A stretch of 64,000 bases of DNA from the IMG/VR virus record IMGVR_UViG_3300037067_008087, positions 18,397 to 82,396 of that record, one strand, 5' to 3'. Below, piece by piece: positions 4,611 to 55,730 of this stretch. Numbering within the stretch: position 1 is the first letter of the stretch; each line of letters starts with the position of its first letter. A model generated the notes under the pieces. It had not been told where the DNA came from. It worked only from the letters and a program-made list of their open reading frames with translations, and did no database searches. The DNA is from a virus (lineage: Duplodnaviria; Caudoviricetes). The translations under genes were made by a program, and so were the position numbers.

Positions 4611-4614
4611 GAAT

Positions 4615-7497: not shown

Positions 7498-10400
7498 TTT
7501 TCCAACAAGAGAGAGGCCTGATAGGTTTAAGAAGAGTCTTGATTCAATCCTTAATAATTGCGAGGGCGATTTTAGGGTGATTGTTAAATTAGATAGAGAT
7601 GACCCTACGATAAGCCGCTATTTAGCTCTAGTGGACGAATACCGTAATTATCCTATTATATGGAATATAGGAGATTCAAAAAATAAGGTTAATGCAATTA
7701 ATAGAGATATATCTAATCTTGAATGGGATGTTGTTTTTTGTTGGGCTGATGATATATTTGCCATATACAAAGGCTTTGATAATATTATACGGGGTTCTTT
7801 TACAGACATAAACTCTTGGCCGTGCTTTTGGGATGGATACAGGAAGGATGATCTTATTACCATGTGCATTGTAAGTAGGGTTAATTACGATAGGTTCGGG
7901 TATGTATATTATCCGGGCTATGAATCCCTGTACTGCGACAACGAAATGACTGAAATAGCGAGGATTATGGGCGGGTTGAATGTTATACGCCATCCGCAAA
8001 TAGTTAAGCATAATCACCCCGCGCTAAATACCAATGTGCGATTCGATGAACTAAACACTAAAAACGACAAAAGTTCTTCCGTTGACAAGAAGTTATTTGA
8101 AGAGCGTAAAAATAACAATTTTTACATAAACAATAACGATGAGTTGTTAGCCTTAAAATACCAGCAGGAGCCATTAGAGTACGAGGGTTTAATATACAAA
8201 TATTTTAACCCGAAAAAGAAATTAACCATTTTCGAGGTAGGAGCCTGCCAATGTGAGGATACCCTGAAATTACAGAAGTTATTCCCTAATTCTGATATTC
8301 ATGCGTTTGAGCCAATACCGGACAATTACAACAAAGGGCGCCAAAAGATAAGCGGCATCACTCTAAATAATATAGCTGTATCAGACCACAAGGGGGAAGA
8401 TGATATGTATGTAAGCTCTGGGGCTCCCTGTGGCAGCGGAGAGTTTTATGGTAACAAAAGCAGTTCTTTATTAGCCCCATATAAACACCTTGAGATATTT
8501 GAGTGGTGTAAGTTCAATAAGAAGGTACGAGTTAAAGTAGATACTATCGCCAACTACATAACCAAGAAAAACATAAAGCACATTAATTTCATCCATATGG
8601 ATGTTCAGGGGGCTGAGTTACAGGTACTAAAAGGATGCGGGGCGTTTATTTCTAATGTGGATATAGTGTTTTTAGAGGTGGCAAGAATAGAAATGTATAA
8701 GGATCAAGCCTTATTGCCGGACATAAACGACTTTTTTATTTCTAATGGCTTTGAATTGATATATCAGAATGTTAGCGATGTTGCAGGTAATCAATTATGG
8801 GCGAGGATTAAATCGGATTTGCTATTTACTTCCATGCCAAAATATTGTATTAATCTTGCAAAGGAAGTTGACCGAAGAGTTGGCGTGGCTGGTGAATTTG
8901 AAAAGTTAGGGCTATCTATAAATTTCTATAACGCCATAGATGGCAAGAAGCTGGAGCCAAGTAGAACCATGACGGCGAATGAGATTGCATGCTCTAGGTC
9001 TCATAGAAACATAATTAAAGAAGCAAAGAGGCAAGGCCTTGAGTATGTATATATATGCGAGGATGACATTAAGTTCTGTGATGATTTCTGGAAAAGAATA
9101 AGGCGCATAGAGTCTTGTGGGTTAGATTATGATATGTTATTTTTAGGAGGGCACTTTAGTGATAAAGAGGCTATGCCCATAGAATCATCCCCTACAATAC
9201 ATGATAATATATATAGGGTATATAGATTAGCAGGGGCATATTCTTATATTGTTAAAAGTACCGCTTATGATAAAATACTTAATGCGCCAGAGAAATTTGC
9301 TATAGATGCTTTATATTGTTATTTTATTCAGAAACAAGTTAAAGCCTATGCGTTCATCCCATTCTTAACAACTTGTGCGCCTTGTTTCTCTAATATAACC
9401 GGGGTATATATGGAGTACCCCCATGTAAAATGGTATTATTCAAAAAAAATAGAAATGATTACTTATACGAAGTTAGGTAAAAACGGCAGGCTTGGGAACC
9501 AGTTGTTTCAAGTAGCCGCAGCTATTGCGATAGCTAAAGATAATAAAACAACGGCTAAATTGCCCGTTAACTGGCAATACCGTAATTATTTCAATGTGCC
9601 AGACAAATATTTTGGAGATACGTCACCGGATTTATTGGTGAATGTATCAAATTATCATTATGACATAAGCAAACTGGAGAAGGTTGACTTTGAAAAATGC
9701 GTTGACCTATTTGGGTATTTCCAATCAGAGAAGTATTTTAAAAATATTAAAAAAGATATCATAAAATGGTTCACGCCCAAGGTGGCTAGGTTAGATGAGT
9801 GGTCTGTTGGTATGCATATACGCAGAGGAGATTTTGTGGGTAATAAGGCTCATATAAACCTAAAGCCAGAATATTATATTAGCGCTATTGATAAGTATTT
9901 TAATGACCCACGCTATAAGTTTTATATATGCACTGATGATCCAGACTATGCAAGATTCCATTTCAAGGGTGATCGGTTTATAATAGCAGATAGAACGGAA
10001 CTTGAGGACTTTGATGTTATGGTATCATGCCAAAATCACATCTTAGCCAATAGCTCATTTAGTTGGTGGGGGGCTTATTTAGCACAAAGCAAGAGGGTTA
10101 TTCGCCCCGCTAAATCTTTTAGGGGTGTGCTTGATCCTCTTAGTGAGAAAGACCTGTGGCAGCCTGAGTGGATAACCCATGAAGATCACCGGATAGACCT
10201 ATCTGATGTTACTTTTATCACTACATTTAAGTACGATCACCCAGATAGGATAGAGAACCTTGATATATTTATGGATCAGCTTGGGGCTTATAAAACTAAC
10301 ATCCTTATAGGGGAGATGGGAGGGCAAATTGTAAAAGAAAAGTATCCTAAAAACTACGTAGACTTAAATTTTATAAAAGTCTTCCATCATACCCGCAGTA

Positions 10401-11758
10401 ATAACATATTGGCAGCATTGGCTAAAACAGAAATAGTTATCAATATAGACTGTGATATTGTTGTCCCCCCCAATCAGATATATGAGGCGGTTAAGATGCT
10501 GAGAAACGGCTATGAGTTCGTTTTCCCGTATGAGGGGATATTTGTGAGGGTGGGGAATGGGTCTAATGACCGGAACCAAGATTATATAAAATTAATTAAA
10601 GAGGCTGGAGACATAGGGATATTAAAGGGAATAGAGTTTTTTGGCATGTCTTCCGACAATATAGAGAGCCATGGTGGTGTGTTTGGATTTAGGAAGGGTG
10701 TTTACTTTAAGTACGGAGGGGATAACGAAAATTATGTTTCCTACGCACCAGAGGACACTGATAGAGCCTATAGATTCAGAACGCTGAGTAAATACGGGAG
10801 GGTAAGCGGTTCCCTTTATCACTTAAATCATTTTTGTGGTGTGGACAGCACTAATATGAATCCATATTTTAACGCATCAGTCAAGGAGTGGGGAAAGGTA
10901 AGGGCTATGAATAAAAAACAGCTCCTTGCTTACATTAAAACATGGGAGTGGGATTATAGTAAAGTAAAAACACTTAAGGATATAGATAAGGGGTCATGCA
11001 TAAAAACAACTAAAAATAACATCACCGATGTTACATTTATCATACCTGTTAAATACGATCATCCAGACAGAAAAGAAAACCTTAATTTATGTATTAGTTT
11101 TTTACGATATTGGTTTGATACTAATATAATAATAGGGGAACAGGGTGGCGATAAGTTCTCTTACGTAAAGGATATCGGGTGTGAATATGTGAAGTTTGAC
11201 AGCATGCATGAATTTCACCGCACACAGATGATAAATAAACTTACATCTATAGCTAAAACACCAATAGTTTTTAATTGGGATGCCGATGTTGTGGCTCCCC
11301 CGAATCAGGTACTGGACGCGGTAAATTATTTAAGAAACGGGGGCGAGTTTGCTTATCCTTACAACGGAACATTTATTAAAATAGATAAGGACAAAGCGTC
11401 ACAGTTTGGTATATCACTGGATATATCAATGCTTTTTTCGGCAGAACACCAAAAAATAGTGTCAGATTCTGATGGTGGGGCTATAGGATATAAAAAGGAC
11501 GCCTTTTTTAGAATAGGGGGAGAAAATGAACATTACATGTCCCATAGCCCTGAAGACAGGGATAGAAAATACAGAATAGAGACCTTGGCTGAATACACAA
11601 GGATACCGGGGCCGTTGTTTCATATAAACCACTATAAAAGCAAAGACTCAATTCATGATAATCAATATAAGGTTATTAATAAAAGCGAATGGAGGAAGGT
11701 GGGACAAATGAGTAAGGCAGAATTAACTAAATATATAAAAACATGGAAATGGATTTAA
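7478..11758 (+). CDS. 1426 aa multidomain glycan-synthesis protein: GT-A + FkbM methyltransferase + GT25 + GT11 + two tandem GT2/GT7-like domains
   Basis: GT-A (WADD, SLYCDNE); FkbM (FEVGA, AFEP, HMDVQGAE); GT25 (YCINL, DRR, ACSRSH, ICEDD); GT11 (GRLGNQLFQ, GYFQSEKYF, HIRRGDF, NSSFSWWGAYL); two repeats of DVTFI..KYDHPDR.ENL...D.D...GG.NE.Y....PED.DR. Confidence 0.85.
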   Translation: MLKILFNFPTRERPDRFKKSLDSILNNCEGDFRVIVKLDRDDPTISRYLALVDEYRNYPIIWNIGDSKNKVNAINRDISNLEWDVVFCWADDIFAIYKGFDNIIRGSFTDINSWPCFWDGYRKDDLITMCIVSRVNYDRFGYVYYPGYESLYCDNEMTEIARIMGGLNVIRHPQIVKHNHPALNTNVRFDELNTKNDKSSSVDKKLFEERKNNNFYINNNDELLALKYQQEPLEYEGLIYKYFNPKKKLTIFEVGACQCEDTLKLQKLFPNSDIHAFEPIPDNYNKGRQKISGITLNNIAVSDHKGEDDMYVSSGAPCGSGEFYGNKSSSLLAPYKHLEIFEWCKFNKKVRVKVDTIANYITKKNIKHINFIHMDVQGAELQVLKGCGAFISNVDIVFLEVARIEMYKDQALLPDINDFFISNGFELIYQNVSDVAGNQLWARIKSDLLFTSMPKYCINLAKEVDRRVGVAGEFEKLGLSINFYNAIDGKKLEPSRTMTANEIACSRSHRNIIKEAKRQGLEYVYICEDDIKFCDDFWKRIRRIESCGLDYDMLFLGGHFSDKEAMPIESSPTIHDNIYRVYRLAGAYSYIVKSTAYDKILNAPEKFAIDALYCYFIQKQVKAYAFIPFLTTCAPCFSNITGVYMEYPHVKWYYSKKIEMITYTKLGKNGRLGNQLFQVAAAIAIAKDNKTTAKLPVNWQYRNYFNVPDKYFGDTSPDLLVNVSNYHYDISKLEKVDFEKCVDLFGYFQSEKYFKNIKKDIIKWFTPKVARLDEWSVGMHIRRGDFVGNKAHINLKPEYYISAIDKYFNDPRYKFYICTDDPDYARFHFKGDRFIIADRTELEDFDVMVSCQNHILANSSFSWWGAYLAQSKRVIRPAKSFRGVLDPLSEKDLWQPEWITHEDHRIDLSDVTFITTFKYDHPDRIENLDIFMDQLGAYKTNILIGEMGGQIVKEKYPKNYVDLNFIKVFHHTRSNNILAALAKTEIVINIDCDIVVPPNQIYEAVKMLRNGYEFVFPYEGIFVRVGNGSNDRNQDYIKLIKEAGDIGILKGIEFFGMSSDNIESHGGVFGFRKGVYFKYGGDNENYVSYAPEDTDRAYRFRTLSKYGRVSGSLYHLNHFCGVDSTNMNPYFNASVKEWGKVRAMNKKQLLAYIKTWEWDYSKVKTLKDIDKGSCIKTTKNNITDVTFIIPVKYDHPDRKENLNLCISFLRYWFDTNIIIGEQGGDKFSYVKDIGCEYVKFDSMHEFHRTQMINKLTSIAKTPIVFNWDADVVAPPNQVLDAVNYLRNGGEFAYPYNGTFIKIDKDKASQFGISLDISMLFSAEHQKIVSDSDGGAIGYKKDAFFRIGGENEHYMSHSPEDRDRKYRIETLAEYTRIPGPLFHINHYKSKDSIHDNQYKVINKSEWRKVGQMSKAELTKYIKTWKWI

Positions 11759-12318
11759 TACGAATATTAGTAGATGTGGATCATGATGTGGACGGTAATT
11801 TGAACGTGTCCCCGATAATAAGCGTCCCAGAACAGCCCTTTGATATTAATAAGTTATATGATTGTTTTAATAAATTAAAAATAACCATACAGGACAATAA
11901 TTTCATAGGGAAATATTGTGTGGTTTTAAAAATGGTTAATGGTAGTTATGAAATGAAGAATGTATTTTATCCGCGATCCATAAATATGGAAAGGATACAT
12001 AATGATGTGGCTATGCATTTTGGTCTTTCACCAGACGACCTATTATCAAAAACTAAAAAAAGAAAGATAGCAAAGCCAAGACAATTTTCAATGGCGCTCA
12101 TGAGTTATTTACTTAATTCACCCACTGTTGTTGTCGGGGGATTCTATGGGTTAGACCATGCGACAGTTATTTTTGCAAGAGACAAGGCAATACCGGCATA
12201 TTATTTATCCAGAGATAAAGAAATAACTGACGCCATATCTTATTTTAATACCGCATACGGGTTGGCTAAGACAATAAACGACCATATAAAGGAAATTTTA
12301 GGAAAGCCTGTAAATTAA
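11743..12318 (+). CDS. Protein with a DnaA domain IV (Bac_DnaA_C)-like HTH
   Basis: IHNDVAMHFGLSPDDLLSKTKKRKIAKPRQFSMAL...GGFYGLDHATVIFA matches the DnaA C-terminal consensus (VA..F......L.S..R...I...RQ..M...DH.TV..A). Confidence 0.75.
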   Translation: MEMDLIRILVDVDHDVDGNLNVSPIISVPEQPFDINKLYDCFNKLKITIQDNNFIGKYCVVLKMVNGSYEMKNVFYPRSINMERIHNDVAMHFGLSPDDLLSKTKKRKIAKPRQFSMALMSYLLNSPTVVVGGFYGLDHATVIFARDKAIPAYYLSRDKEITDAISYFNTAYGLAKTINDHIKEILGKPVN

Positions 12319-12370
12319 TATGTTACAAATTGTGTGTTTTTCATAGTGTTTAAGTATTAGGTTGTTAAGG

Positions 12371-12402
12371 AAAACCCCGGAAGTCATATCTGGGGTTTTT
12401 TT
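12371..12402 (+). terminator. Intrinsic terminator
   Basis: Stem AAAACCCCGGA / TCTGGGGTTTT (one G-U pair) followed by a T-run, downstream of the DnaA_C-like gene. Confidence 0.75.
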
Positions 12403-12409
12403 ATCTTTG
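12402..12409 (+). promoter_or_regulatory. Bacteroidetes -7 promoter box (TATCTTTG)
   Basis: Matches TAnnTTTG about 24 nt upstream of the ATG at 12433. Confidence 0.6.
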
Positions 12410-12432
12410 TACCTACATTAAATTCATATAAA

Positions 12433-12915
12433 ATGGCAGGTGCATCAATCGTAGGGACGGGTCTCATCACCGTAGATGTTACACACAAAGATGGTAGGGC
12501 TTATGCGAAGACTATTCTTTTAAGTTGTGGCAAAATAGGTGAGGCATGGGATAATTCTAGCAGCACTGCTGATTTTTACTATGACATTGAAGCGGGTCGT
12601 GGCCCGGCTGTGAGATTTACAGCAACAACACTTACTAAATCAACCCTTACTACTGCTATTGAAAATGCAGACACAGGGAATCCTCGTTTTCAGATTCATG
12701 TAATGACTGAGAATAGGGGTAGAAGCGGTGAGGTTGCTGTAGACAGGCTTGTTACTATCTATACAGAAGACATTCTGTGGGGGGTAGATATCAACACGAC
12801 TACTTCTTATTTGTATGTTAAACGTGGGTACGATAGGGTAAGACTGAAAACATCCCATATTTTAACTGACATAGTAAGTTCGGCAAGTACATCTAGATCG
12901 CTTAGCGCGTCCTAA
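12433..12915 (+). CDS. Hypothetical protein, possibly a virion accessory/decoration protein
   Basis: 160 aa, S/T-rich, monocistronic (own promoter and terminator), with two weakly similar halves. Confidence 0.5.
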   Translation: MAGASIVGTGLITVDVTHKDGRAYAKTILLSCGKIGEAWDNSSSTADFYYDIEAGRGPAVRFTATTLTKSTLTTAIENADTGNPRFQIHVMTENRGRSGEVAVDRLVTIYTEDILWGVDINTTTSYLYVKRGYDRVRLKTSHILTDIVSSASTSRSLSAS

Positions 12916-12917
12916 TT

Positions 12918-12944
12918 AAAAAGGGGGTAGTCAGCCCCCTTTTT
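12918..12944. terminator. Bidirectional intrinsic terminator
   Basis: AAAAAGGGGG-tagtcag-CCCCCTTTTT between convergent genes ending at 12915 (+) and 12961 (-). Confidence 0.85.
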
Positions 12945-12960
12945 TCTTTGTTTACTATGG

Positions 12961-13191
12961 TCACTCCTCAAAACTATCTAATACCGTCATTAGATCAGCC
13001 TCGTTATTTGGTTCCTTGAATTTCCTCCGCAATCCATCCATTATATTTGTGGATATCGCCTTTACTTTAGCTATGTATTTTATCATGTTTATAGCCTCTG
13101 GACTTATGTGTGGTACGCCCTCAGGCTTTTCTTCCTCAAGATAAGAAATGAAATCTGCGTCATCCTTAAATTCAGTTCTAATTACGGGCAT
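12961..13191 (-). CDS. Hypothetical protein (76 aa)
   Basis: ORF track; ends at the bidirectional terminator. Confidence 0.6.
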   Translation of the reverse strand: MPVIRTEFKDDADFISYLEEEKPEGVPHISPEAINMIKYIAKVKAISTNIMDGLRRKFKEPNNEADLMTVLDSFEE

Positions 13192-13280
13192 ATGTAATTT
13201 TTATGTAAAGTTAAAAACTATATTTGAAATTTCCAAATTTTTATTTGTATATTATTTAATAGTTTACTAACTTTGATAGC

Positions 13281-13583
13281 ATGTATTCTGATATAATAAT
13301 AAAAAGGATTGCGGCTGGGCAAACATTAACCATGCCAGAGTTTGAAAAGGCTATTAAAGATATTGAAAAGCAGGCTAAAGAAAAGGGAGCTGAAGAAACT
13401 AGGCTATTTCTGTCTGAAGTAAGAAGGGTGTCTAAGGTTTCTAAAGAAAAAGCTAGGGATAAGTATATCCAAATGATACTATCAGACATCAGTGATTTTT
13501 GTTACGACATGAGAAGATTAAAAAATGGGCAAGACATCTCAAAAAATCCTGCTTCTGGAACTGGAACAATACCTGAAGAGTAA
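13281..13583 (+). CDS. Hypothetical protein (100 aa)
   Basis: ORF track; TAACTTTG box at 13268..13275 just upstream. Confidence 0.6.
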   Translation: MYSDIIIKRIAAGQTLTMPEFEKAIKDIEKQAKEKGAEETRLFLSEVRRVSKVSKEKARDKYIQMILSDISDFCYDMRRLKNGQDISKNPASGTGTIPEE

Positions 13584-13845
13584 GTATCTGGTTATCGAAA
13601 AGGAGAAGATGATGAAAGACGTAATTAAAACCGACAGAAGATTCCGATATGACTACTTTATCCCATCAATATCAGTGGTTTGCGAAATTAATGGAGGATC
13701 ATACATTCCAAGGGGTAGACACACGTATGGCAAGGGATATGAGACTGACTTAACGAAAATGAACATGACACAATTTCATGGTATTAAATATTTTCAGTTT
13801 ACCTATGACATGTTGGCAAAACAGGACTATAAAAATTACTTATGA
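13525..13845 (+). CDS. DUF559/Vsr-like endonuclease
   Basis: RFRYDYF, CEINGG, GRHT, YETDLTKMN, G..YFQFT. Confidence 0.7.
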   Translation: MGKTSQKILLLELEQYLKSKYLVIEKEKMMKDVIKTDRRFRYDYFIPSISVVCEINGGSYIPRGRHTYGKGYETDLTKMNMTQFHGIKYFQFTYDMLAKQDYKNYL

Positions 13846-14111
13846 TTTTCAGGGTTCATTATAACTGGATTGCGACTCCTGCCGGGGAAATATACCAAGA
13901 CTACACCGTGGGTAGCTCTTACGAAGTGCCGGGGGAAACAGACGAAGATGGGCTCCCTAAATTTAGGAAAGTGGTGGGCATTGAATATGTGAAAAGAGGG
14001 AGAAACACAAGGTCTTTGGGTTATGTTATAGTTAAAATGGATGATGGATACCAGATAATACAAGATAATATACAATCTTTATATTCAAAAGATGGAAACA
14101 CCAAGGGTTAA
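13842..14111 (+). CDS. Hypothetical protein (89 aa)
   Basis: ORF track; overlaps the stop of the preceding gene. Confidence 0.6.
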   Translation: MIFRVHYNWIATPAGEIYQDYTVGSSYEVPGETDEDGLPKFRKVVGIEYVKRGRNTRSLGYVIVKMDDGYQIIQDNIQSLYSKDGNTKG

Positions 14112-14535
14112 AAGCGCTGAAACAGTACAGGCCTGTATAGATGAGTTATATAAGTTAAATGACTGGTATAAACATTCTTATAAATCATGCACTATAGAAA
14201 ACCTATCTCATGCAAGGGCTAAGATGGTAACATATAATGCCACCCTATCAACATTCGTAGCTGAAAGTAAGAATGAAGTTGTTGACACGGAACATGCACT
14301 GGAAATGTCCTTTAATAAATTAAACATAACAAACCTAGATAGCGGGGAGAGTATAGCTAGGGCTAAAAGCACAGCCATATTATCAACAGAAAAAGAAAGA
14401 GAGGCTTTTAACCTTGCTAAAAAATATTTCACTTATATTTCCATCTTTCATGCTAATATGAATAATGTTATTGATGCCATGAGTCAGGATATAGCTACCA
14501 TGAAAAAAGAAGAAAGGCAATCTCGGATATTATAA
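14092..14535 (+). CDS. Hypothetical helical protein (147 aa)
   Basis: ORF track; coiled-coil-like composition. Confidence 0.6.
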   Translation: METPRVKSAETVQACIDELYKLNDWYKHSYKSCTIENLSHARAKMVTYNATLSTFVAESKNEVVDTEHALEMSFNKLNITNLDSGESIARAKSTAILSTEKEREAFNLAKKYFTYISIFHANMNNVIDAMSQDIATMKKEERQSRIL

Positions 14536-14580
14536 CCCATTGCATTATATATGATTCATTAGTTTACAAAATAAGCCATA

Positions 14581-14748
14581 ATGTATGATATATTTTACAA
14601 ATACACCCATTTTGCAAATTTCATAGAGCTCCGCCGAGGTAACGATCCCCGTTATCTTATTTACAGGATAAGCACATCACCATTAATGTTTGCGGAGCGT
14701 AATGAAAAGCCCCACCATATAGACGGGGCCTTTGACTTCTTAACTTAA
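14581..14748 (+). CDS. Possible small ORF (55 aa; not in the ORF track)
   Basis: Hand translation MYDIFYKY...GAFDFLT*; fills an otherwise empty 244 bp gap. Confidence 0.3.
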   Translation: MYDIFYKYTHFANFIELRRGNDPRYLIYRISTSPLMFAERNEKPHHIDGAFDFLT

Positions 14749-14778
14749 ACTTAAAACCAACACAAATATAATAAAAAT

Positions 14779-15468
14779 TTAATTAGATAATCCTAATATT
14801 GCTAATATTGTTGCAATCCCCCCAAATATTACAGCAACAGTCGCATTCCTATTAACATTCTTCTTAAGAAGTTTAATCTGGTAATCTTTATCTCCTATGA
14901 CTTTATTTTTCTGGTTATCTTGTTTTACATATAACTCTATCTGATTTTCATAAGTGGCATTAAGCAACTCACACTCCTCATAATTCATTAAAATAACATC
15001 CGTATAAGCTTCGTATTGTACTATCTCATCCCGCAACATCCATGATTCGGAATAAATATTAAATAAGCCGTCTAATTGAGGCTCAGAGAAAGGATAGTCT
15101 TTAGGGGTATCGTCTGTACCAACTACAGTAATAAGGCTGTCATATTTAACGCTAGGGGGTATATTAGCATTACTAACCTTAAGCTCCGCTATTTGTTTAT
15201 CTAAAGCTGATATTGATCTCTGATAAGCTTTAATTTCTTTATTGCCATCAATTATCCTTTGCTGTATCTCAATAACATCAGCCTTTAAAAGCTTTAGCGA
15301 ATCAGATAAAACCCTTATAGTATCTTGTCTTAGGGAGATATCCGACTTTAACGCCTTAATTTCTTTTGAATATTTAACTCCACGGTGGCTAGCATAGCCG
15401 GCTACAAACAATAACACAGCTATCATAACCACCGTTAGGATGTTAAATTTAATTTTAGCCTCAGCCAT
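14779..15468 (-). CDS. Membrane-anchored coiled-coil protein, spanin (Rz)-like
   Basis: N-terminal TM (ILTVVMIAVLLFVAGY), a long heptad region and a C-terminal TM (ATVAVIFGGIATILAILGL). Confidence 0.5.
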   Translation of the reverse strand: MAEAKIKFNILTVVMIAVLLFVAGYASHRGVKYSKEIKALKSDISLRQDTIRVLSDSLKLLKADVIEIQQRIIDGNKEIKAYQRSISALDKQIAELKVSNANIPPSVKYDSLITVVGTDDTPKDYPFSEPQLDGLFNIYSESWMLRDEIVQYEAYTDVILMNYEECELLNATYENQIELYVKQDNQKNKVIGDKDYQIKLLKKNVNRNATVAVIFGGIATILAILGLSN

Positions 15469-15812: not shown

Positions 15813-15906
15813 AATTAAATAAGATTAAATTAGACAACAAAGTTACGAAAAGGGAATAACTAACTTCCACCTATCTCTGTCTGGTGTGTTGTGTAGATTA
15901 ATTGCA

Positions 15907-18900
15907 TTATTTATACTGATTTACTAAGTCATATAACTGTTTATATGTTACCACCCTTATTTCATCCCCGGCAACCTGTTTAGTTCTAATATAGTCCAAT
16001 ATGTTTTCAAGTATTGTGTAATATTCATATTCCTCCAAATCCCACGTTCCCGGATGGCCATATATACCGAGTGTCGTCCTCTTGGTTGTTATAATTGCAT
16101 CTATATGACCTTCAATAGTTGTTTGATTAGGAATATCAAATCCTTGTGCATAAAACAAATCCCACCTATTAATAGGTATTTTTAGCCTGTTGTTTGTAAC
16201 TAATGTTGCACTTACTGAACGTCCAATATTAAAATAATCTAATACCGCAGAAAAAGTTACATCATCAGCAGCTCCTCCGGGATATGCTTTAGATACAATC
16301 CTGTAATCAATAGCTGTATCGTAATAATTTACTGCCTTTTCATAATAGGTAGCTAATTGTTCAGTAGTATAATTTGCTGATGTTTCATGAAATTCTATTC
16401 TTTCTGGCGGATATTCTCCATTTATTGATAGAGTATGTAATCCTATTTCGTTATCGTTTTTAATTAATGATTTGATCTGTGTGTTTGTAAGATAATGACC
16501 GTAATTAATAAAAAATGTTTGCGGCACACTATGAGGCACAAATACAGTGTCTAATAACGGAATTTCCGTTGGCGTTGTATGATCCCAACTAAATACCACA
16601 AGCGGAAAATCAACATTTTGAATTAACACATAATCGGTATTGTATTGAGCATGATCGCTGTCGCTTACATATACATCATCTTTGAAAATTATTAAATCCT
16701 TGATATATCCTGTCGTTCTATAATTATAGCCTCCATCATAATAATTGGAATCCATCTTATTATAGTATAGATGTGGCCTCCAATTATCAAAATCCGTGAA
16801 TTTTAACGGATCACCAACGAAAATCGTATCTAAAACCTCTCTGACAGAATTTGCTTCACTTAGTGATTCATCGCCTGTTGCAGTGAATATTTGATTTTCC
16901 GTATATTCGCCAAAATATCCTTCCGTTGTGTTTTCGATAAAATAATTTTTATCAGCCACACAATATCCGCTTAATAATAAAGTACTTAATTTAGGCTTTT
17001 CAAGGGTGAAAGGGAAGTCAATATCACAAGCATATCTTAACCATGTTGATCCATCCTGAACATTCCTTAATGGCTTGCCTAAAACATCGTTAGTCCCCGC
17101 CAATAATCCCGGTATTATATAATATTCCTCTACCAATACCGAATTAATCTCAAATGATGATCTTGCACTCCCATTAAAATATAAATATAACGTGGTTTCT
17201 CCGGCGGTGAAATTTGCAACATGGCTTCTGTTTACCAAATCCCACGGAGCTACTGTAATTAATCCACCTCCTGCATTATATCCTGCATATAGAGCAGTAC
17301 CTATAATTGTTAATCTTGTATATATTCCTGACGTGATCGTATTGTTTCTTTGCAAATACGGGCGTGTCGTTGCGGATGCTGTTGGTTGTTTAGTTACCTC
17401 TGCCGTTAAGTTATTATTTGAAAAGGATAGAGTACCAGTGCCACTCGTCCCCCAAACTGCCGACCATCCACTTGTAGATGTTGAAAAATCTGATTGGTAT
17501 TTAACTTTTGTATCATTATAACCATATTGAGCCAGATAGAAATAATTATTCTGAGTTGCAACATTCGCCTCTGCCAAACCACTACACAAAGCATGATGAC
17601 TATTACCAGACACGTCATAAGAAGTCGTTGGTATATTAGTTTCAATTATTGGCTCACAGAATGGAATTATTGCCCATATAACATCTTCCCTCCAAATACT
17701 AATACCATATACAGTATCCCCTTCTGCTATCCTTAATGTCCCGTCAACCGGAATAGTCGGCAAATCACTGCCATCAACAACAGATATAGAATCAGTAGTT
17801 AAAACTCCTGTAATTGTATAATCTAAATTACCAGTTATTGATGTTCTTGCTGAAGCGTTCTTTAAAGCCGCATTATTCTCGTAAAATGTGGCGTCTATCC
17901 ATTCATTTGTTGTAAAATTAAAAGTATCTGCAACAAAAACATATATATTAACAGCAACCGTAATAATATTTGAACTCGCACTCACTCCCGCTGAATTTAC
18001 CGCCCTCACCCTGTAATAGTAAGTTGTGTTCTCGGTTAGTCCGGTAACTGATTGAGAAGTCCCGCTTACCGTCAGATTGTTATACCCAGTTACAAAGGTT
18101 GCAAAGTTACTTGCCGTTGATACGTCCAGCCTGTAACTCGATGCCCCCGATACTGCAGTCCAATTAGCAGTAAAACTTGTGTCGGTTACGGAGGTGGCTG
18201 CCGTTGCTACGGGGGCAGACATATACACCATAAACGAATTACCACCCTTCATAAACTTACCCTCTGACTTCATAAACTGTCCACCGCTACCCATGAATCC
18301 ACCAGTAGGTGTTTCCGGTGCTGCTGCGACTGTTACCGTTACCGTCCACTCCTGAGTTGATTCGTCCAGTGCTGTGACTGTATAAACAACCAGAGAAGTA
18401 AAGTCTGTTGCTGTTCCGCTTGTAGGTGAAATTGTCGCTCCTTCACTTACTGTTATTGTAGGCTGTAAAGCTGTTACTGATGTGCCGTATTCGACTTCTA
18501 TACTTACAGTATGAGCAGTTGAGTTTATTGTGGCTGATCCGGTTTGGGCTGAGAGGGTGAAGGTTAGGATGTTAGTGGCGGTGCTGTCGGCTGAGCCGTA
18601 TTCGGAATAACCGAGGTCAGGGGCAAGCCCGTTGTAAGGCAATCCCACGTCAACACCAGCGTCTATTAAAACAGAACCTTCTTTTAACGTTAGGAACGTT
18701 ATGTCTGGAAGTGAACCATCCGCTTTTCTGGAGGCTGTTAGTTCCGCAAACATAGAAGCTGAATCTAATATATTAAAGTTATCATTCAGCCCCGAATATG
18801 CCCAACTAAGCGTATCATTGTATTCCCAATAAGGTATTTCACCGTTCGTAAATAACCATGTGTTATGATCTCCTCTCGCATAGCTGGGTGGGCCATCACA

Positions 18901-19953
18901 CGCTGATAAATACAGTTCCCAATACCAAAGCCCCCATGAATTATAAACTACATTATTTTGATACAACACTTCGGCATCATGTATATCACAGTCAAAACCA
19001 GTCCCCGGATCAGTCGTAAAACCTTGTTTGCACTTGTAAGCAATGTTGTTATAGTAGTGCATTATTGGCCCATACGGGTAATTTAGATTTTGTTCTACAA
19101 AACCAGACGCTTTATTAAATGCCGCAATATTATTATATGCTTTTCTCGTTTCTAATGATTGTTTATATCCATGTGAATATTTAAAACCAACTCCGGCACC
19201 GTATTCAAGTAGCCCATTACTAAAAGCCCAATTATTATATACATGAGATTGACAAGCCGGGCTAACTTCAAATCCATCATCTGAATTATTCCATGATCTA
19301 CACCCGGAAACTATAAATAAATTAGTAGAATCAGGCTCTGCCGTCCCAGAACCAAAAGTAAATCCATCAGCCCTATTGCCGGGCTCGGGATCATTTTCAC
19401 TTATATTATTATAGCTATCGCAGTTTGTAACATACAAAGTGTCGAAACCTATTATCCATGTCCCATACCCCTCAATATCATGTGATACCATCTGGTCAAA
19501 CCAAATAACCCCTACCTGATATAATGATATACCTGAAATCCATTGACCCAACACAATCTGTTCGCAATTCCGAACTGTTAATCCCCTGAATTTAATATAG
19601 GTAACGTTTTTGACATCTAATGCAACCTTAGTTTCTTCTGAAGTATAATTACTACAATCTAATATTGGGGTTTCATTCGGATAATTAAAAAAACAGATAG
19701 GATCAGTGTACGTGCCGTTATTACCATGACTTGCCGAAGGGTTTAATATAGGTTCTGACGTAGGTTGCCAAATCCCATTACGGAAATATACAGTGTCCCC
19801 CGCTTCGGCTGTGTCAAATCCTTTCTGCCATGTTGCAAAAGGCTGTGCTATCGTTCCGGGATTACTATCACTTCCCCCTGAAGGAGCAACATAATAAGTG
19901 GCTGCATTTAACACACTATTACTAAACAATAGTATAATTATTATTTTTTTCAT
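15907..19953 (-). CDS. Signal-peptide-bearing multidomain depolymerase: PL9-like beta-helix + Ig-like + FN3 + NodB/CE4-like deacetylase
   Basis: Real start MKKIIIILLFSNSVLNA-ATYYV at 19953 (ATGA overlap). Beta-helix motifs GDTVYFRNG, NRADGF, NSDDGF, GVGFK; FN3 (FTANWTAVSGASSY...YYYRVRAVN); C-terminal EIGLHT, AYPGG, YGHP. Confidence 0.75.
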   Translation of the reverse strand: MKKIIIILLFSNSVLNAATYYVAPSGGSDSNPGTIAQPFATWQKGFDTAEAGDTVYFRNGIWQPTSEPILNPSASHGNNGTYTDPICFFNYPNETPILDCSNYTSEETKVALDVKNVTYIKFRGLTVRNCEQIVLGQWISGISLYQVGVIWFDQMVSHDIEGYGTWIIGFDTLYVTNCDSYNNISENDPEPGNRADGFTFGSGTAEPDSTNLFIVSGCRSWNNSDDGFEVSPACQSHVYNNWAFSNGLLEYGAGVGFKYSHGYKQSLETRKAYNNIAAFNKASGFVEQNLNYPYGPIMHYYNNIAYKCKQGFTTDPGTGFDCDIHDAEVLYQNNVVYNSWGLWYWELYLSACDGPPSYARGDHNTWLFTNGEIPYWEYNDTLSWAYSGLNDNFNILDSASMFAELTASRKADGSLPDITFLTLKEGSVLIDAGVDVGLPYNGLAPDLGYSEYGSADSTATNILTFTLSAQTGSATINSTAHTVSIEVEYGTSVTALQPTITVSEGATISPTSGTATDFTSLVVYTVTALDESTQEWTVTVTVAAAPETPTGGFMGSGGQFMKSEGKFMKGGNSFMVYMSAPVATAATSVTDTSFTANWTAVSGASSYRLDVSTASNFATFVTGYNNLTVSGTSQSVTGLTENTTYYYRVRAVNSAGVSASSNIITVAVNIYVFVADTFNFTTNEWIDATFYENNAALKNASARTSITGNLDYTITGVLTTDSISVVDGSDLPTIPVDGTLRIAEGDTVYGISIWREDVIWAIIPFCEPIIETNIPTTSYDVSGNSHHALCSGLAEANVATQNNYFYLAQYGYNDTKVKYQSDFSTSTSGWSAVWGTSGTGTLSFSNNNLTAEVTKQPTASATTRPYLQRNNTITSGIYTRLTIIGTALYAGYNAGGGLITVAPWDLVNRSHVANFTAGETTLYLYFNGSARSSFEINSVLVEEYYIIPGLLAGTNDVLGKPLRNVQDGSTWLRYACDIDFPFTLEKPKLSTLLLSGYCVADKNYFIENTTEGYFGEYTENQIFTATGDESLSEANSVREVLDTIFVGDPLKFTDFDNWRPHLYYNKMDSNYYDGGYNYRTTGYIKDLIIFKDDVYVSDSDHAQYNTDYVLIQNVDFPLVVFSWDHTTPTEIPLLDTVFVPHSVPQTFFINYGHYLTNTQIKSLIKNDNEIGLHTLSINGEYPPERIEFHETSANYTTEQLATYYEKAVNYYDTAIDYRIVSKAYPGGAADDVTFSAVLDYFNIGRSVSATLVTNNRLKIPINRWDLFYAQGFDIPNQTTIEGHIDAIITTKRTTLGIYGHPGTWDLEEYEYYTILENILDYIRTKQVAGDEIRVVTYKQLYDLVNQYK

Positions 19954-20717
19954 AGATACTTTTCTTCTAACCAATCATATATTGTAGATTGTGTAGTCCC
20001 GTCATCAACAACACTTCTGATAATAACTGCTTTTACCTCTATATTTGAATTATACGAGCCACCGCCATTACTCCCAAGATAAAAACCAGCCATATCATTA
20101 CTCCCAGCATTTCCCGTTACGGCGGTATTTTTATTAATCTGCAAAGAGGAGCTTTCGCCATTTAAAATTACACGAACAATGCCGTATGTATCTAAAGCTA
20201 AATCACCATCATCTTGCAATACAGTCCCAGCATATAATCTTAAATATCCTGAATTATCAGTTGATCCTTGTTGTAAAGAACCGTATTCGCTGGCATTATT
20301 ACCATCAAACACAAAATCCCACCGAGACCAAGTAACTTGTTTAAAGACAATATAAATGGTTATTGGTTGATTTAAAGTATATACCCCACCAAGAAAAGCG
20401 CCTTCTCCATTAAACAATATTCCATTTGCGTTTAAAACAGGACGTTCAACCCAAACTACAGGTACAAGGTCTAAGTCGTTACCAGATTCAAAATAGTCTC
20501 TCCATTCTTCAACATAAGTAGGATGGTCAACGGTCATGGTAAACGTACTTGATTCATCGTACAAATACATCGCTACCGTATTATTATCAAGTTCCTCTGG
20601 ATACTCCCCTCCTTCTTCCCCAGCACTCTGCACCCCCCTATAAAACGGATACCTCCCTATCTGCCCGTTAACTGAAACAAGCAGAAATAATAAGGGTATT
20701 ATTATTAACTTTTTCAT
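19950..20717 (-). CDS. Signal-peptide-bearing concanavalin A/LamG-like lectin-domain protein
   Basis: MKKLIIIPLLFLLVSVNG-Q; beta-sandwich pattern (P.L...G..F.G, TIYIVFK, SSLQIN, IKAVII-like strand, YDWL..KY). Confidence 0.6.
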   Translation of the reverse strand: MKKLIIIPLLFLLVSVNGQIGRYPFYRGVQSAGEEGGEYPEELDNNTVAMYLYDESSTFTMTVDHPTYVEEWRDYFESGNDLDLVPVVWVERPVLNANGILFNGEGAFLGGVYTLNQPITIYIVFKQVTWSRWDFVFDGNNASEYGSLQQGSTDNSGYLRLYAGTVLQDDGDLALDTYGIVRVILNGESSSLQINKNTAVTGNAGSNDMAGFYLGSNGGGSYNSNIEVKAVIIRSVVDDGTTQSTIYDWLEEKYL

Positions 20718-20720
20718 GGC

Positions 20721-22007
20721 TTAGTAAGTTGACGTTTTGTAGCCTGAAAGTTGCAAGATTAACAATGACGGTTTATTCCCGGCACTTGTGGCACTTATCG
20801 TACACCATACAAACACCCCCGGCGGGATAACTGCATTTGCAAATGAAGTATCTACATCTCCGGTAGTCGTGCTTGTTATTGTCAATGCTTCTGTGTTTAA
20901 GTTAGTCGCTGAACCTGATTTAAAGGTTGCGTGCCAGCTTACCTGTACCCCCACTGTTTCAGTCCCGCTACCTTCTGCCAATACCCCTCGTAAAGACGTT
21001 ACGTGTATCGTATCGCTTCCCGCATTGAAGAATGAACCCGCTATTGCATTATCATTAAAAGCTGCTGTGTCTGCCGCCAAGCCACCTCCCAGACCGAAAG
21101 TGAATATCGGTATTGTGTCGGCTAACATAACAACATCCTCCGTTGCTGGCTTTCCTGCAAGTCCGGTTGTAAAATCATAGCCCGTCACATAACTCCCTGC
21201 TGCTGTGCCGGAACTGTCTGCTAAAGCCACACCGTCAACGGCATTGTTAAGTAAAGCTGCATTAGAATCGGCAATCATACCTGCTGCCTGTGCTATAACA
21301 AAAGCCGTAGATGCTGCTTGAGTTGTGTTCGTCCCTGTTACTGCTGTCGGAACAGTAGGAGTGCCTGTTAATGCCGGGCTTGAAGATAATACAGTCGAAC
21401 CAGTACCAGTTGACGTGGTTACTCCCGTTCCCCCATTTGCCACTGCTAAAGTTCCCCCCTGTGTTATAGTACCAGATGTCGTTATTGGCCCTCCCGAAGT
21501 CGTTAATCCTGTTGTACCTCCTGAGACGGCTACACTGGTAACAGAACCAGTCCCTCCCCCTATCTCAATGGCATTTATCCTTGCATCCAAAGAAAGAGTG
21601 TCATCACCAGTAAGAAACCCAGTTAAAGCAGATAACTTAGCATAATTAAGCAGGCTATCTGCAATTTCACTCTGTACATCCCCAATAGTTATAAATTCAC
21701 TTATGGCAGAACTCTTTACATAGTTAAGTAAACTATCCGCTATCTCCCCCTGAGCATCACTAAGGGTTATTAAATCAATAATATCATCATGTGTAGCTAT
21801 TTTTGTAAGGGTATCTCCCCATTCGACATAGCCAGTTAGGTCAAGTTCCCCAGCCACAATATCATTTGCTACACTATCTACATAGTGTATTGTTGCAATC
21901 TTGTTTATAGTGTCTACGGTTGCTGTGGCATCAATCTTTTTCGCTTGCCCAAATGCCGATAAGCTTGTTATTACTAAAAGCGATATGATTGCAATTTTTG
22001 TTTTCAT
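20721..22007 (-). CDS. Tail-fibre-like protein with an N-terminal signal peptide
   Basis: MKTKIAIISLLVITSLSAFG-Q; contains GTLAVANGGTG and SPALTGTPTVPTAVTGTNTTQAASTAFV, a typical phage tail-fibre repeat motif. Confidence 0.75.
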   Translation of the reverse strand: MKTKIAIISLLVITSLSAFGQAKKIDATATVDTINKIATIHYVDSVANDIVAGELDLTGYVEWGDTLTKIATHDDIIDLITLSDAQGEIADSLLNYVKSSAISEFITIGDVQSEIADSLLNYAKLSALTGFLTGDDTLSLDARINAIEIGGGTGSVTSVAVSGGTTGLTTSGGPITTSGTITQGGTLAVANGGTGVTTSTGTGSTVLSSSPALTGTPTVPTAVTGTNTTQAASTAFVIAQAAGMIADSNAALLNNAVDGVALADSSGTAAGSYVTGYDFTTGLAGKPATEDVVMLADTIPIFTFGLGGGLAADTAAFNDNAIAGSFFNAGSDTIHVTSLRGVLAEGSGTETVGVQVSWHATFKSGSATNLNTEALTITSTTTGDVDTSFANAVIPPGVFVWCTISATSAGNKPSLLILQLSGYKTSTY

Positions 22008-22023: not shown

Positions 22024-22380
22024 TTAATTCTTCAACCATTGTATGAACATTATAATATATGGTATAATGGTTATGCCCAATCCTATTATCCATTTGGTGT
22101 CCCTACTAGACTCTTTCTTTTTTGCATAAGCCCTTTCCTTTTCTGTCGTTGTAACTTCTATTTCTTTCTTGAAATCTGAAATGGATGATATCTTTTCTGA
22201 CAGGGCGCTCATTGTATGGCATAGCTCTTCAGACCTATCTTCGTTTATCTTCAGCCGCACATTTAATTCAGTAACAGCAGAAATAACTCCCTTTTGGCCA
22301 TTACCCTCCAGCACTTTTTTATGCCTGTCGAGGGTTTCCTTCATTGCCCCTATTTCTTGTTCAAACTTGCAAACTTCCAT
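22024..22380 (-). CDS. Putative holin-like protein (coiled coil plus C-terminal TM)
   Basis: C-terminal WIIGLGITIIPYIIMFIQW preceded by a charged helical region. Confidence 0.45.
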   Translation of the reverse strand: MEVCKFEQEIGAMKETLDRHKKVLEGNGQKGVISAVTELNVRLKINEDRSEELCHTMSALSEKISSISDFKKEIEVTTTEKERAYAKKKESSRDTKWIIGLGITIIPYIIMFIQWLKN

Positions 22381-22812
22381 TTACCACCATATTTCAAGGT
22401 TACCATCTGTTACGCTATTCCACACTATTGTTATAGCTAGAATATCCCCTCGCCACTGTATGTCTGTTAACACTATCGCATTAGTGGTATATGCCACTGT
22501 AGCATAGTTAGCGGTATATGTTAATGTTGCATCCGCAGTATTTAAAGTGTATGGATTCCCGGATACATCAATCTTATAATTAGCATGATGATCATCCCTG
22601 CCATACCCGATAGTGGCGACAGCATCATTAGCATTAAAACTAGTGAAGTCCATTATCACAAGGCTCACATCTTGCTTGCTACCCATGTTTATAAAAAATG
22701 TGGTAGTATCTTGTGAATAATAATCTGCGGCATCATAAGTCCTTCTTAGGCGTTGGGCACTGATATCTACCGCAAGTAGCGACAACAGTAGGAAAAATAT
22801 TGTTTTTTTCAT
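22381..22812 (-). CDS. Small secreted beta-rich protein
   Basis: MKKTIFFLLLSLLAVDISA-Q signal peptide; TAACTTTG box at 22830..22837. Confidence 0.65.
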   Translation of the reverse strand: MKKTIFFLLLSLLAVDISAQRLRRTYDAADYYSQDTTTFFINMGSKQDVSLVIMDFTSFNANDAVATIGYGRDDHHANYKIDVSGNPYTLNTADATLTYTANYATVAYTTNAIVLTDIQWRGDILAITIVWNSVTDGNLEIWW

Positions 22813-22855
22813 TGAAATAAAATTTTAACAAAGTTACTAAAATCACATATATACC

Positions 22856-33118: not shown

Positions 33119-33141
33119 TGTTATATTTTTTACAAAGTTAC
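33113..33141 (-). promoter_or_regulatory. Late promoter/leader, identical 29 bp copy 1
   Basis: GTAACTTTGTAAAAAATATAACAATGGCA on the minus strand, identical to 46222..46250. Confidence 0.75.
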
Positions 33142-46227: not shown

Positions 46228-46250
46228 TGTTATATTTTTTACAAAGTTAC
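46222..46250 (-). promoter_or_regulatory. Late promoter/leader, identical 29 bp copy 2
   Basis: Exact match to 33113..33141, including TAACTTTG and ATGGCA. Confidence 0.75.
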
Positions 46251-55720: not shown

Positions 55721-55730
55721 AATAATAAAT

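Follow-up and report, generated by a model that had tools for sequence, protein, structure and literature searches.

Within a 64,000-nt stretch of viral DNA (the window, meaning the whole stretch that was analysed), a phage of a Bacteroidota host encodes a 428-aa tail-fibre-like protein which combines a predicted signal peptide of the host's type with about 2.6 times the chance number of the host's O-glycosylation motif. It is therefore probable, although inferred from sequence and models alone, that this protein matures and is glycosylated in the periplasm. Literature searches found no paper on exported or glycosylated tail fibres of Bacteroidota phages, and such a route was described for tailed-phage fibres in none of the papers searched.

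Sequence features and sequon content of the fibre-like protein

The open reading frame is real, but it lies on the minus strand, as the plus-strand frame is full of stop codons. The gene, its parts and its neighbours are as follows.

20721..22007 (minus strand): whole gene including the stop codon, coding for the 428-aa putatively exported fibre-like protein (P0001); the only long open frame here, with a 79% identical homologue (P0002)
21948..22007 (minus strand): predicted signal peptide, aa 1-20, with K2, K4, a 15-residue hydrophobic core and AFG↓Q21
21573..21947 (minus strand): mature N-terminal region, aa 21-145, with short helices predicted at low confidence (33-40, 44-51, 57-69, 73-81, 83-101 and 108-122) and six sequons (aa 32, 44, 65, 91, 117 and 136)
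21600..21755 (minus strand): internal tandem duplication, aa 85-110 against 111-136, each copy with EIADSLLNY
21228..21572 (minus strand): Gly/Thr-rich fibre-shaft repeats, aa 146-260, holding both fibre motifs (nt 21423-21455 and 21297-21380)
20724..21140 (minus strand): C-terminal domain (CTD), aa 290-428, an eight-stranded jelly roll predicted to trimerise, with three conserved sequons (aa 297, 313 and 332)
22829..22836 (minus strand): TAACTTTG, a Bacteroidota-type -7 promoter-like element 17 nt upstream of the first gene of the cassette, in the 43-nt gap between a 2259-aa gene and the 143-aa gene
22381..22812 (minus strand): 143-aa protein with signal peptide (ISA↓Q), a homologue of which lies beside the cassette in locus L002
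22024..22380 (minus strand): 118-aa XhlA-like protein of a lysis-associated type (phrog_1193, E 1.3e-5), with a coiled coil and a C-terminal membrane helix
19950..20717 (minus strand): 255-aa protein with signal peptide (VNG↓QIGRYPF; phrog_21809), always directly downstream of the CTD gene
15907..19974 (minus strand): 1355-aa putatively exported enzyme with Pel9A-like beta-helix, fn3, DUF5018 and polysaccharide deacetylase domains, containing 12 sequons against 5.9 expected

The sequence-only reading had described phage fibre motifs, a signal peptide, an internal duplication and an excess of glycosylation sequons in this protein, and this observation was confirmed. GTLAVANGGTG is located at aa 185-195 and the SPALTG...STAFV motif at aa 210-237, and the PHROG tail-fibre families 2631, 7032 and 454 match significantly (E 3.8e-9, 5.4e-8 and 2.6e-6), yet only over aa 202-259, about 50 of the 428 residues. 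The N-terminus starts with a basic residue followed by a hydrophobic stretch and AFG↓QAKK, and the two copies of the duplication share 16 of 26 residues at an offset of 26. All counts given in the sequence-only reading were exact: the protein has 27 Asp, of which 12 are followed by Ser or Thr, and nine of these form full D-(S/T)-(A/I/L/V/M/T) sequons, whereas TerL has two and the MCP three. The three remaining D-[ST] are DSN, DSS and DTS; if Ser is allowed at the third position the number of sites rises to 11.

The comparison with a composition-shuffled background, which had been proposed together with the sequence-only reading, gave a mean of 3.5 sequons and p = 0.005. P0001 has the highest sequon density of about 60 ORFs in the window. 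For a single protein this value would, however, not survive correction for 60 tests, and two of the nine sites are copies of each other. The pooled and family-level tests are far beyond chance, although the pooled Poisson p-values overstate independence as the family sequences are related. Six putatively exported proteins of the window together contain 40 sequons against 20.7 expected (Poisson p 1e-4), while the remaining proteins contain 46 against 43.7. Over the window plus 48 loci, CTD proteins gave 393 against 90 (observed/expected 4.4), other signal-peptide proteins 211 against 118 (1.8) and proteins without a signal peptide 314 against 306 (1.0). The variable N-terminal parts alone gave an observed/expected ratio of 3.7, and their excess is as strong as that in the CTD, whereas shaft homologues without a signal peptide gave 0.5. 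Among X-[ST]-[AILVMT] motifs only X = Asp stands out, with 3.8 against 0.3-2.1 for the other 18 scorable residues; Glu is not enriched, and D-[ST] followed by another residue is depleted (0.36). In 11 of 12 unrelated clusters of N-terminal parts the count exceeds expectation (sign test p 0.003). As single-linkage clustering merged 62 of 73 N-terminal parts into one cluster, this number of independent lineages is conservative.

The C-terminal domain family and its gene neighbourhood

The CTD of P0001 defines a large family (alignment A1) which is found almost only in phages. It is characterised by a domain of about 135 aa at the extreme C-terminus with the motifs DTIP.F.FG, F.N.GSDT and IPPG.WVW; P0001 matches the family HMM with E 4e-68, and 119 members were present among the 253 proteins retrieved. 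Of the 111 members that start with Met, 99 carry a signal peptide according to hydropathy rules. In 76 of them the first Q or C after the hydrophobic core is Q, in agreement with the Q-rule of Bacteroidetes (PMC5837995, PMC10653852), and in 21 it is C, with those that were read ending in LSGC↓IGTK, the lipoprotein pattern. In contrast, only two of 123 fibre-shaft homologues without the CTD carry a signal peptide. Over a thousand homologues of the shaft stretch were found in phage fibres without signal peptides. The family was found in 45 viral loci, and outside of them only three short MAG contigs turned up, in one genome each of 185,579 species. None of 400 other genomes of the phylum of the MAG that holds locus L048 (titled Chitinophagaceae bacterium) contained it. 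A tblastn search of the GenBank phage records (INPHARED) gave no match for P0001, the CTD alone, the MCP or the 255-aa neighbour, so there is no cultured relative with a virion proteome among these records; the 1355-aa enzyme matched only uncultured records over its first 190 aa.

The AF2 model of the CTD is confident (pLDDT 88.9). Its best structural matches are C-termini of phage collagen-like and Mtd-N fibres in BFVD (E 5e-12 to 1e-4) and the distal end of the Agrobacterium phage 7-7-1 tail fibre (9rkv_M, Z 8.4). A Foldseek search against the PDB gave no match at E up to 0.001, and an exhaustive VIA search yielded only generic jelly-roll scores of Z 7-8.6, including capsid decoration proteins, CBMs, discoidin domains and XepA. 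It is hence only claimed that the CTD is predicted to be a jelly roll most like phage fibre tips. A trimer was predicted with an ipSAE of 0.94 against 0.00 for the best control, a mark which in calibration was reached by 20 of 30 solved homomeric pairs and 1 of 23 single chains; the runs agree in at least 93% of contacts and the partner's pLDDT is at least 88. Searches of Pfam and NCBIfam found nothing for P0001. There was thus no C-terminal Peptidase_S74 chaperone domain, although some shaft homologues do carry PF13884.

Whether the sequons face the surface of the trimer had been named beforehand as a test of the glycosylation reading, and the outcome is mixed. Judged from the list of interface residues, T298 of the first CTD sequon touches a neighbouring subunit in the predicted trimer, whereas T314 and T333 are not among the contact residues. 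The full-length monomer model reached a pLDDT of only 64, with values mostly below 60 outside the CTD and about 45-65 around the six N-terminal sites, too low to judge their exposure. The three CTD sequons are 88-95% conserved and are also kept in the few members with no visible signal peptide. They may therefore be structural rather than glycan sites.

The gene heads a conserved cassette of putatively exported proteins between tail and lysis genes in unrelated phage types. In all ten loci examined, sipho-like with a tape measure as well as crAss/podo-like, the CTD gene sits just after the tail genes and is followed by one or more further signal-peptide genes, which in eight of the ten loci include a homologue of the beta-helix enzyme, third in the cassette. 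Lysis-type genes come next where they could be recognised. The second cassette protein shares a domain with a tail-module protein lacking a signal peptide (locus L039) and with phrog_10356, annotated as virion structural protein, to C-terminal parts of which relatives of the 255-aa protein match. The number of -7 promoter-like motifs in the whole window is not above chance, so that only the placement of the element upstream of the cassette is suggestive, and a scan for sigma-70 promoters and terminators was uninformative, with counts below the shuffle mean.

Proposed export and glycosylation, and competing readings

The sequence-only reading had inferred a fibre adapted to the periplasmic glycosylation pathway, and this interpretation is partly supported. 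The fibre motifs are real, the N-terminus is a conserved Bacteroidota-type signal peptide following the Q-rule, and the sequon excess survives control for composition and is specific to putatively exported phage proteins; the presence of glycans, however, is inferred, and the term fibre rests on motifs and gene position. In the favoured explanation, which appears about as likely as not, the gene encodes a trimeric fibre-like host-recognition protein of a lytic Bacteroidota phage which matures outside the cytoplasm. It would be transcribed late with its cassette neighbours and exported by the Sec system, and signal peptidase I would cut after Gly20, exposing Gln21, which would be turned into pyroglutamate by the host's glutaminyl cyclase. 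The general O-glycosylation system of the host would load glycans on most of the six N-terminal sites and perhaps on two of the three CTD sites. According to a review (PMC12871550), the motif is generally almost fully occupied in non-cytoplasmic Bacteroidota proteins, and an engineered motif becomes glycosylated. The chains would then trimerise through the shaft and the C-terminal jelly-roll knob, a module exchanged between unrelated phages and most simply read as the host-binding tip, and the fibre would meet the cytoplasm-built particle only when holin lesions or lysis merge the compartments.

The anatomy of the signal peptide, the sequons, the fibre repeats, the gene order and the family statistics are directly visible in the sequence, whereas export, cleavage, pyroglutamate formation, glycosylation and trimerisation are inferred from established knowledge of the host phylum and from models, and the late joining of the particle is a hypothesis. 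Export is considered likely, and so is glycosylation if the protein is exported, but membership of the virion is slightly less likely than not. The non-cytoplasmic location is inferred from the signal peptide only. Some family members are lipoproteins (locus L007, protein P0006 and others) and some are little more than signal peptide plus CTD (163-220 aa, such as P0195 and P0203), both of which are hard to reconcile with a virion-attached fibre. Moreover, the mature N-terminus shows no recognisable virion-docking domain, and in the one cultured crassvirus with a structure the docking hub holds residues 1-26 of the fibre protein gp22, so that this N-terminus is not cleaved (PMC10172136).

A possible, though less favoured and rather doubtful, alternative is that the protein is exported without being part of the virion and acts in the envelope or after release at lysis. 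It could mask the phage's own receptor, giving superinfection exclusion and protecting progeny from debris in the manner of T5 Llp, it could be a free lectin working with the exported depolymerase, or it could be a lysis accessory beside the XhlA-like protein, as XepA is in PBSX. The lipoprotein and CTD-only members, the interleaving of the cassette with holin-type or XhlA-type genes, the start of the beta-helix enzyme right after its signal peptide without any particle-binding domain, and a weak fold likeness to the exported PBSX protein XepA (6i56, Z 8.3) fit with this idea, as do Q-rule proteins of unknown function in P. gingivalis phages, which were suggested to modify the outer membrane (PMC10367356). 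Yet, without a T9SS domain or a lipoprotein export signal the protein should stay periplasmic and could not reach surface receptors, a long trimeric shaft makes little sense for a soluble periplasmic blocker, no other receptor-binding candidate is recognisable between the tape measure and the lysis genes of the sipho-like loci, and the XepA match is within the generic jelly-roll range.

It appears unlikely that P0001 is an ordinary cytoplasmic tail fibre whose hydrophobic N-terminus is not used for export during infection (or serves another role) and whose motifs are structural features inherited with the domains. All known tailed-phage fibres assemble in the cytoplasm, the three nearly invariant CTD motifs sit at strand starts or loops with one of them in the predicted interface, and some members show no signal peptide. 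However, the signal peptide with Gln or Cys after the hydrophobic core is kept in 97 of 111 members despite unrelated mature N-termini, at least one member with no visible signal peptide is a truncated contig (L048/L050, frame open to the contig start), and the sequon ratios of homologous shafts without signal peptides (0.5) and of phage proteins without a signal peptide in the same genomes (1.0) speak against it. Very unlikely is a role as type IX secretion cargo with a new kind of C-terminal sorting domain, displayed on the surface of the infected cell. The layout of signal peptide, variable body and conserved C-terminal domain mimics such cargo, and an ESM Atlas structure search listed some T9SS proteins among distant look-alikes (TM 0.60). 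But no match to Por_Secre_tail (PF18962) or to any NCBIfam model, which include the sorting-domain models TIGR04183 and TIGR04131, was obtained at E up to 0.1. The CTD has about 135 aa, whereas 70-100 aa are typical of T9SS CTDs. It is also predicted to be an eight-stranded jelly roll rather than the seven-stranded Ig-like sandwich of T9SS CTDs (PMC11285876) and to form a tight trimer, and the other cassette proteins lack it.

Relation to known systems and biological meaning

Phage tail-fibre shaft proteins (PHROG 2631, 7032 and 454) with C-terminal jelly-roll knobs, for example the phage 7-7-1 fibre (9rkv) and collagen-like or Mtd-N fibres of uncultured phages, share with P0001 the Gly/Thr-rich repeats including the PT.PT...T.AA.T.FV motif, the C-terminal eight-stranded jelly roll predicted to trimerise, and the gene position at the end of the tail module. 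They differ in having no signal peptide (2 of 123) and being poor in the sequon, while P0001 carries an export signal instead of a particle-docking domain. Substrates of the general O-glycosylation system of Bacteroidota (PMC12871550) likewise have a signal peptide and many copies of the exact motif, with Asp required at the first and hydrophobic or Thr/Ala residues at the third position, but P0001 is encoded by a virus. Its sequon density is about 2.1 per 100 aa, against 0.29 per 100 aa (314 sequons in 108,468 aa) in the proteins of these phages without a signal peptide; occupancy of the sites is inferred. The mosaic adhesive trimer fibres of Bdellovibrio bacteriovorus (PMC10769870), all 21 of which carry a signal peptide, are Sec-exported trimeric fibres built from phage-fibre-like modules with exchangeable C-terminal tips, and a Bdellovibrio protein, Bd1399, is among the weak Foldseek matches (8okh). 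However, these are cellular proteins of a predator with a conserved 130-aa domain right after the signal peptide and often an S74 chaperone, whereas here the conserved module is C-terminal, the gene is viral and the sequons point to Bacteroidota glycosylation.

The Q-rule proteins of Porphyromonas gingivalis phages (PMC10367356) also have signal peptides exposing Gln at +1, taken there as adaptation to the secretion system of the host, but they are five unassigned genes of temperate phages for which no fibre features, sequon analysis or conserved cassette were reported. XepA of PBSX and YomS of SPbeta (6i56 and 6i5o; PMC6834076) show weak fold similarity (Z 8.3 and 7.4, within the generic range), and XepA is an exported beta-sandwich protein of a phage late operon from the same PBSX lytic cassette as the xhlA-type gene (PMC6834076). 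It forms, however, pentameric dumbbells, comes from a Gram-positive host, has no fibre repeats or sequons and is listed among non-classically secreted proteins (PMC1266369).

In its furthest-reaching form, which is possible but held only tentatively, the data would mean that tailed phages of Bacteroidota assemble their virions in two compartments. Heads and tails would be built in the cytoplasm, while the host-recognition gear (this fibre, its partner and the depolymerase) would be exported by Sec, capped with pyroglutamate and O-glycosylated by the host in the periplasm, joining the particle only when holin lesions merge the compartments. The phage's own 9.6-kb glycosyltransferase cluster may edit the attached glycan. 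The CTD family provides a concrete and widespread marker, with 45 viral loci and hundreds of 50%-identity clusters. Tail fibres decide which bacteria a phage can infect, and all textbook fibres are made and attached in the cytoplasm. Fibres of Bacteroidota phages that pass through the periplasm and carry host glycans would bear on how these abundant gut, soil and marine phages assemble, why their fibres fail when expressed in E. coli, how they resist proteases or immune recognition, and how host glycosylation or secretion mutants could confer phage resistance.

The protein and its sequons

The coordinates 20721-22007 hold an ORF of 428 codons on the minus strand, whereas the plus strand is closed. 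The record it belongs to is an 82.4-kb IMG/VR viral contig with an estimated completeness of about 70%, which includes a TerL, a portal and large virion-type proteins. The product (P0001) can be divided into five parts:

aa 1-20: putative signal peptide with Lys2, Lys4, a 15-residue hydrophobic core and then AFG/Q
aa 21-145: region of short predicted helices with six sequons and a 26-residue tandem duplication (16 of 26 residues identical)
aa 146-260: Gly/Thr-rich shaft repeats, holding GTLAVANGGTG (aa 185-195) and the SPALTG...STAFV motif (aa 210-237)
a linker
aa 290-428: C-terminal domain (CTD)

Matches to PHROG tail-fibre families were confined to aa 202-259, and searches against Pfam and NCBIfam yielded no match. 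The SPALTG...STAFV segment at aa 210-237 is exactly what is lacking in P0002, a homologue with 79% identity (two gaps in the alignment, of 8 and 13 residues), so this motif is dispensable in this protein.

The observation of the sequence-only reading, which had reported a high number of glycosylation sequons in a protein with phage-fibre motifs, holds, and its counts are exact: P0001 contains 27 Asp, 12 D-S/T and 9 full sequons, while TerL contains 2 and the MCP 3. Shuffling of the protein's own composition, the control that this reading had named in advance, gives 3.5 sequons (p 0.005). As this is the highest density among about 60 ORFs, and as two of the sites are duplicates of each other, the excess in this single protein is suggestive rather than decisive. 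However, the six proteins of the window inferred to be exported together contain 40 sequons against 20.7 expected (p 1e-4), whereas all other proteins contain 46 against 43.7.

A C-terminal domain family and its sequon statistics

Homology searches split the protein in two. The shaft stretch has more than a thousand relatives in ordinary phage fibres without signal peptides. The last ~135 residues, in contrast, are 50-82% identical in well over a hundred proteins whose upstream parts are otherwise unrelated, and in nearly all of them this domain ends the protein. Of 111 CTD members that start with Met, 99 have a signal-peptide N-terminus, while only 2 of 123 shaft-only homologues have one. In 76 of the CTD members the first Q or C after the hydrophobic core is Q, and Gln at +1 is the Bacteroidetes Q-rule (PMC5837995, PMC10653852). 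In 21 it is C, and those inspected end LSGC/IGTK, the lipoprotein pattern. At least one apparent exception without a signal peptide is a truncated contig. The subfamily with lipoprotein signal peptides (LSGC/IGTKIYLG) includes the CTD gene of the viral locus L007 (8510-10426) and the family proteins P0006, P0127, P0135, P0161, P0209 and P0229. These show no acidic surface-export signal after the Cys, and in L007 the gene occupies the same cassette position. In a further locus, L006 (8441-10426), a 661-aa signal-peptide protein carries two tandem CTDs (aa 371-515 and 521-661).

The family appears to be restricted to phages. It was found in 45 viral loci, in 3 short MAG contigs among one genome each of 185,579 species, and in 0 of 400 other genomes of the phylum of the MAG that holds locus L048 (titled Chitinophagaceae bacterium). 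No deposited phage genome contained it.

Sequon counts in phage proteins with and without the CTD or a signal peptide (observed; expected; observed/expected)
CTD proteins (window plus 48 loci): 393; 90; 4.4
Other signal-peptide phage proteins: 211; 118; 1.8
Phage proteins without a signal peptide: 314; 306; 1.0
Variable N-parts of the family: 444; 121.3; 3.7
CTD alone: 238; 51.4; 4.6
Shaft homologues without a signal peptide: 213; 417.1; 0.5

The Glu and Asn versions of the motif are at or below 1 in each of the first three groups of the table. The signal is specific, as among X-[ST]-[AILVMT] motifs only X = Asp stands out (3.8), D-[ST] followed by any other residue is depleted (0.36), and the reversed and permuted motifs are near 1. 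In 11 of 12 unrelated N-part clusters the count exceeds expectation (sign test p 0.003). This matches the known specificity of the Bacteroidota O-glycosylation system, for which the motif in non-cytoplasmic proteins is generally almost fully occupied and an engineered motif becomes glycosylated (PMC12871550).

For the CTD, AF2 gives a confident eight-stranded jelly roll (pLDDT 88.9). The best structural look-alikes of this model are the C-termini of collagen-like and Mtd-N fibres of uncultured phages and the tip of the Agrobacterium phage 7-7-1 tail fibre, whereas scores against the PDB are otherwise generic. Three copies are predicted to form a tight trimer, with an ipSAE of 0.94 against a best control of 0.00. 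The calibration mark was reached by 20 of 30 solved pairs and by 1 of 23 single chains, the runs agree in at least 93% of contacts, and pLDDT is at least 88. The three CTD sequons (aa 297, 313 and 332) are 88-95% conserved. In the trimer model residues 297-300 touch a neighbouring chain, while T314 and T333 are not listed as contacts but sit next to interface residues. The CTD motifs may therefore be partly structural, and the case for glycosylation rests mainly on the variable N-parts.

Gene context

Ten loci were examined, from sipho-like phages with a tape measure as well as from crAss/podo-like ones. In all ten the CTD gene follows the tail genes and is itself followed by one or more further signal-peptide genes. 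In most of them the next gene encodes a protein of 250-340 aa, in several beginning Q-I-(A/G)-R-(H/Y)-P-F, and in eight of the ten a homologue of the signal-peptide beta-helix enzyme follows. Lysis-type genes come next where they could be recognised. Within the window the operon runs from 22812 to 15907, and the following features were noted in the window:

22829-22836, 15838-15845, 33133-33140 and 46242-46249, minus strand: the same octamer, TAACTTTG (Bacteroidota -7 promoter type), in short intergenic gaps just upstream of four minus-strand gene blocks
22024-22380, minus strand: XhlA-like gene (phrog_1193; coiled coil plus C-terminal membrane helix)
19950-20717, minus strand: constant downstream partner of the CTD gene, with a putative signal peptide (VNG/Q)
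14779-15468, minus strand: 229-aa protein with an N-terminal membrane helix and a long coiled coil
7478-11758, plus strand: 1426-aa protein joining at least five glycosyltransferase-type domains and a methyltransferase domain (PHROG hits), without a signal peptide
54260-55807 and 50832-54263, minus strand: second block of fibre-like and large signal-peptide proteins, on the other side of the head genes

An TAACTTTG element lies 17 nt upstream of the operon. TAnnTTTG elements in intergenic gaps point to the same host phylum as the Q-rule, although their total count in the window is not above chance (70 against 76 expected), so that only the placement is notable. The XhlA-like gene is wedged between two signal-peptide genes of the cassette, and holin-like small genes also interleave with the exported genes in related loci. 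The 229-aa protein, which gives weak FtsL/LysB-like matches, could be a spanin-like lysis component at the end of the operon. The downstream partner, the second protein of the cassette, has no sequon at all (0 against 0.9 expected) despite its signal peptide. Its relatives match the C-terminal parts of larger phage proteins (phrog_10356, annotated 'virion structural protein', and phrog_26223), and it shares a domain with phrog_10356 and with a paralogue without a signal peptide inside the tail module of locus L039 (5793-6686). The 1426-aa protein could edit a lipid-linked glycan that is later put on the exported proteins. In the second block the 515-aa protein has 10 sequons against 3.8 expected, and in the related locus L002 homologues of both blocks form one contiguous cluster (2638-14880).

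Relation to known systems and interpretation

The closest families are ordinary phage fibres, which have the same shaft and knob but no export signal and few sequons, and Bacteroidota O-glycoproteins, which have the same signal and motif but are cellular. Also close are the Sec-exported MAT fibres of Bdellovibrio (PMC10769870) and the Q-rule proteins noted in P. gingivalis phages (PMC10367356). The literature searches returned no paper describing exported or host-glycosylated tail fibres. The CTD family, its predicted trimer and the family-wide controls are new to this analysis.

The idea that the protein ends up on the virion is supported by the shaft repeats, the predicted trimeric tip, the tail-fibre gene position and the lack of other recognisable receptor-binding candidates in the sipho-like loci. 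However, the existence of lipoprotein and CTD-only members and the lack of a recognisable docking domain speak against it, as does the uncleaved N-terminus that the hub holds in PhicrAss001 gp22 (PMC10172136). The virion reading is held only tentatively, as slightly less likely than not, while a role in the envelope or after lysis appears less likely still but remains possible.

The proposal of the sequence-only reading, a fibre adapted to the periplasmic glycosylation pathway, is partly supported. The layout of the N-terminus, the motif counts and the gene order are read directly from the sequences, whereas cleavage, export and glycan attachment are inferred, a place on the virion is a hypothesis and the trimer is a model. 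Export is the simplest reading of a signal peptide that is kept across hundreds of diverged proteins. Glycosylation would follow from what is established for exported proteins of this phylum, and from a motif excess that is seen only in the proteins inferred to be exported.
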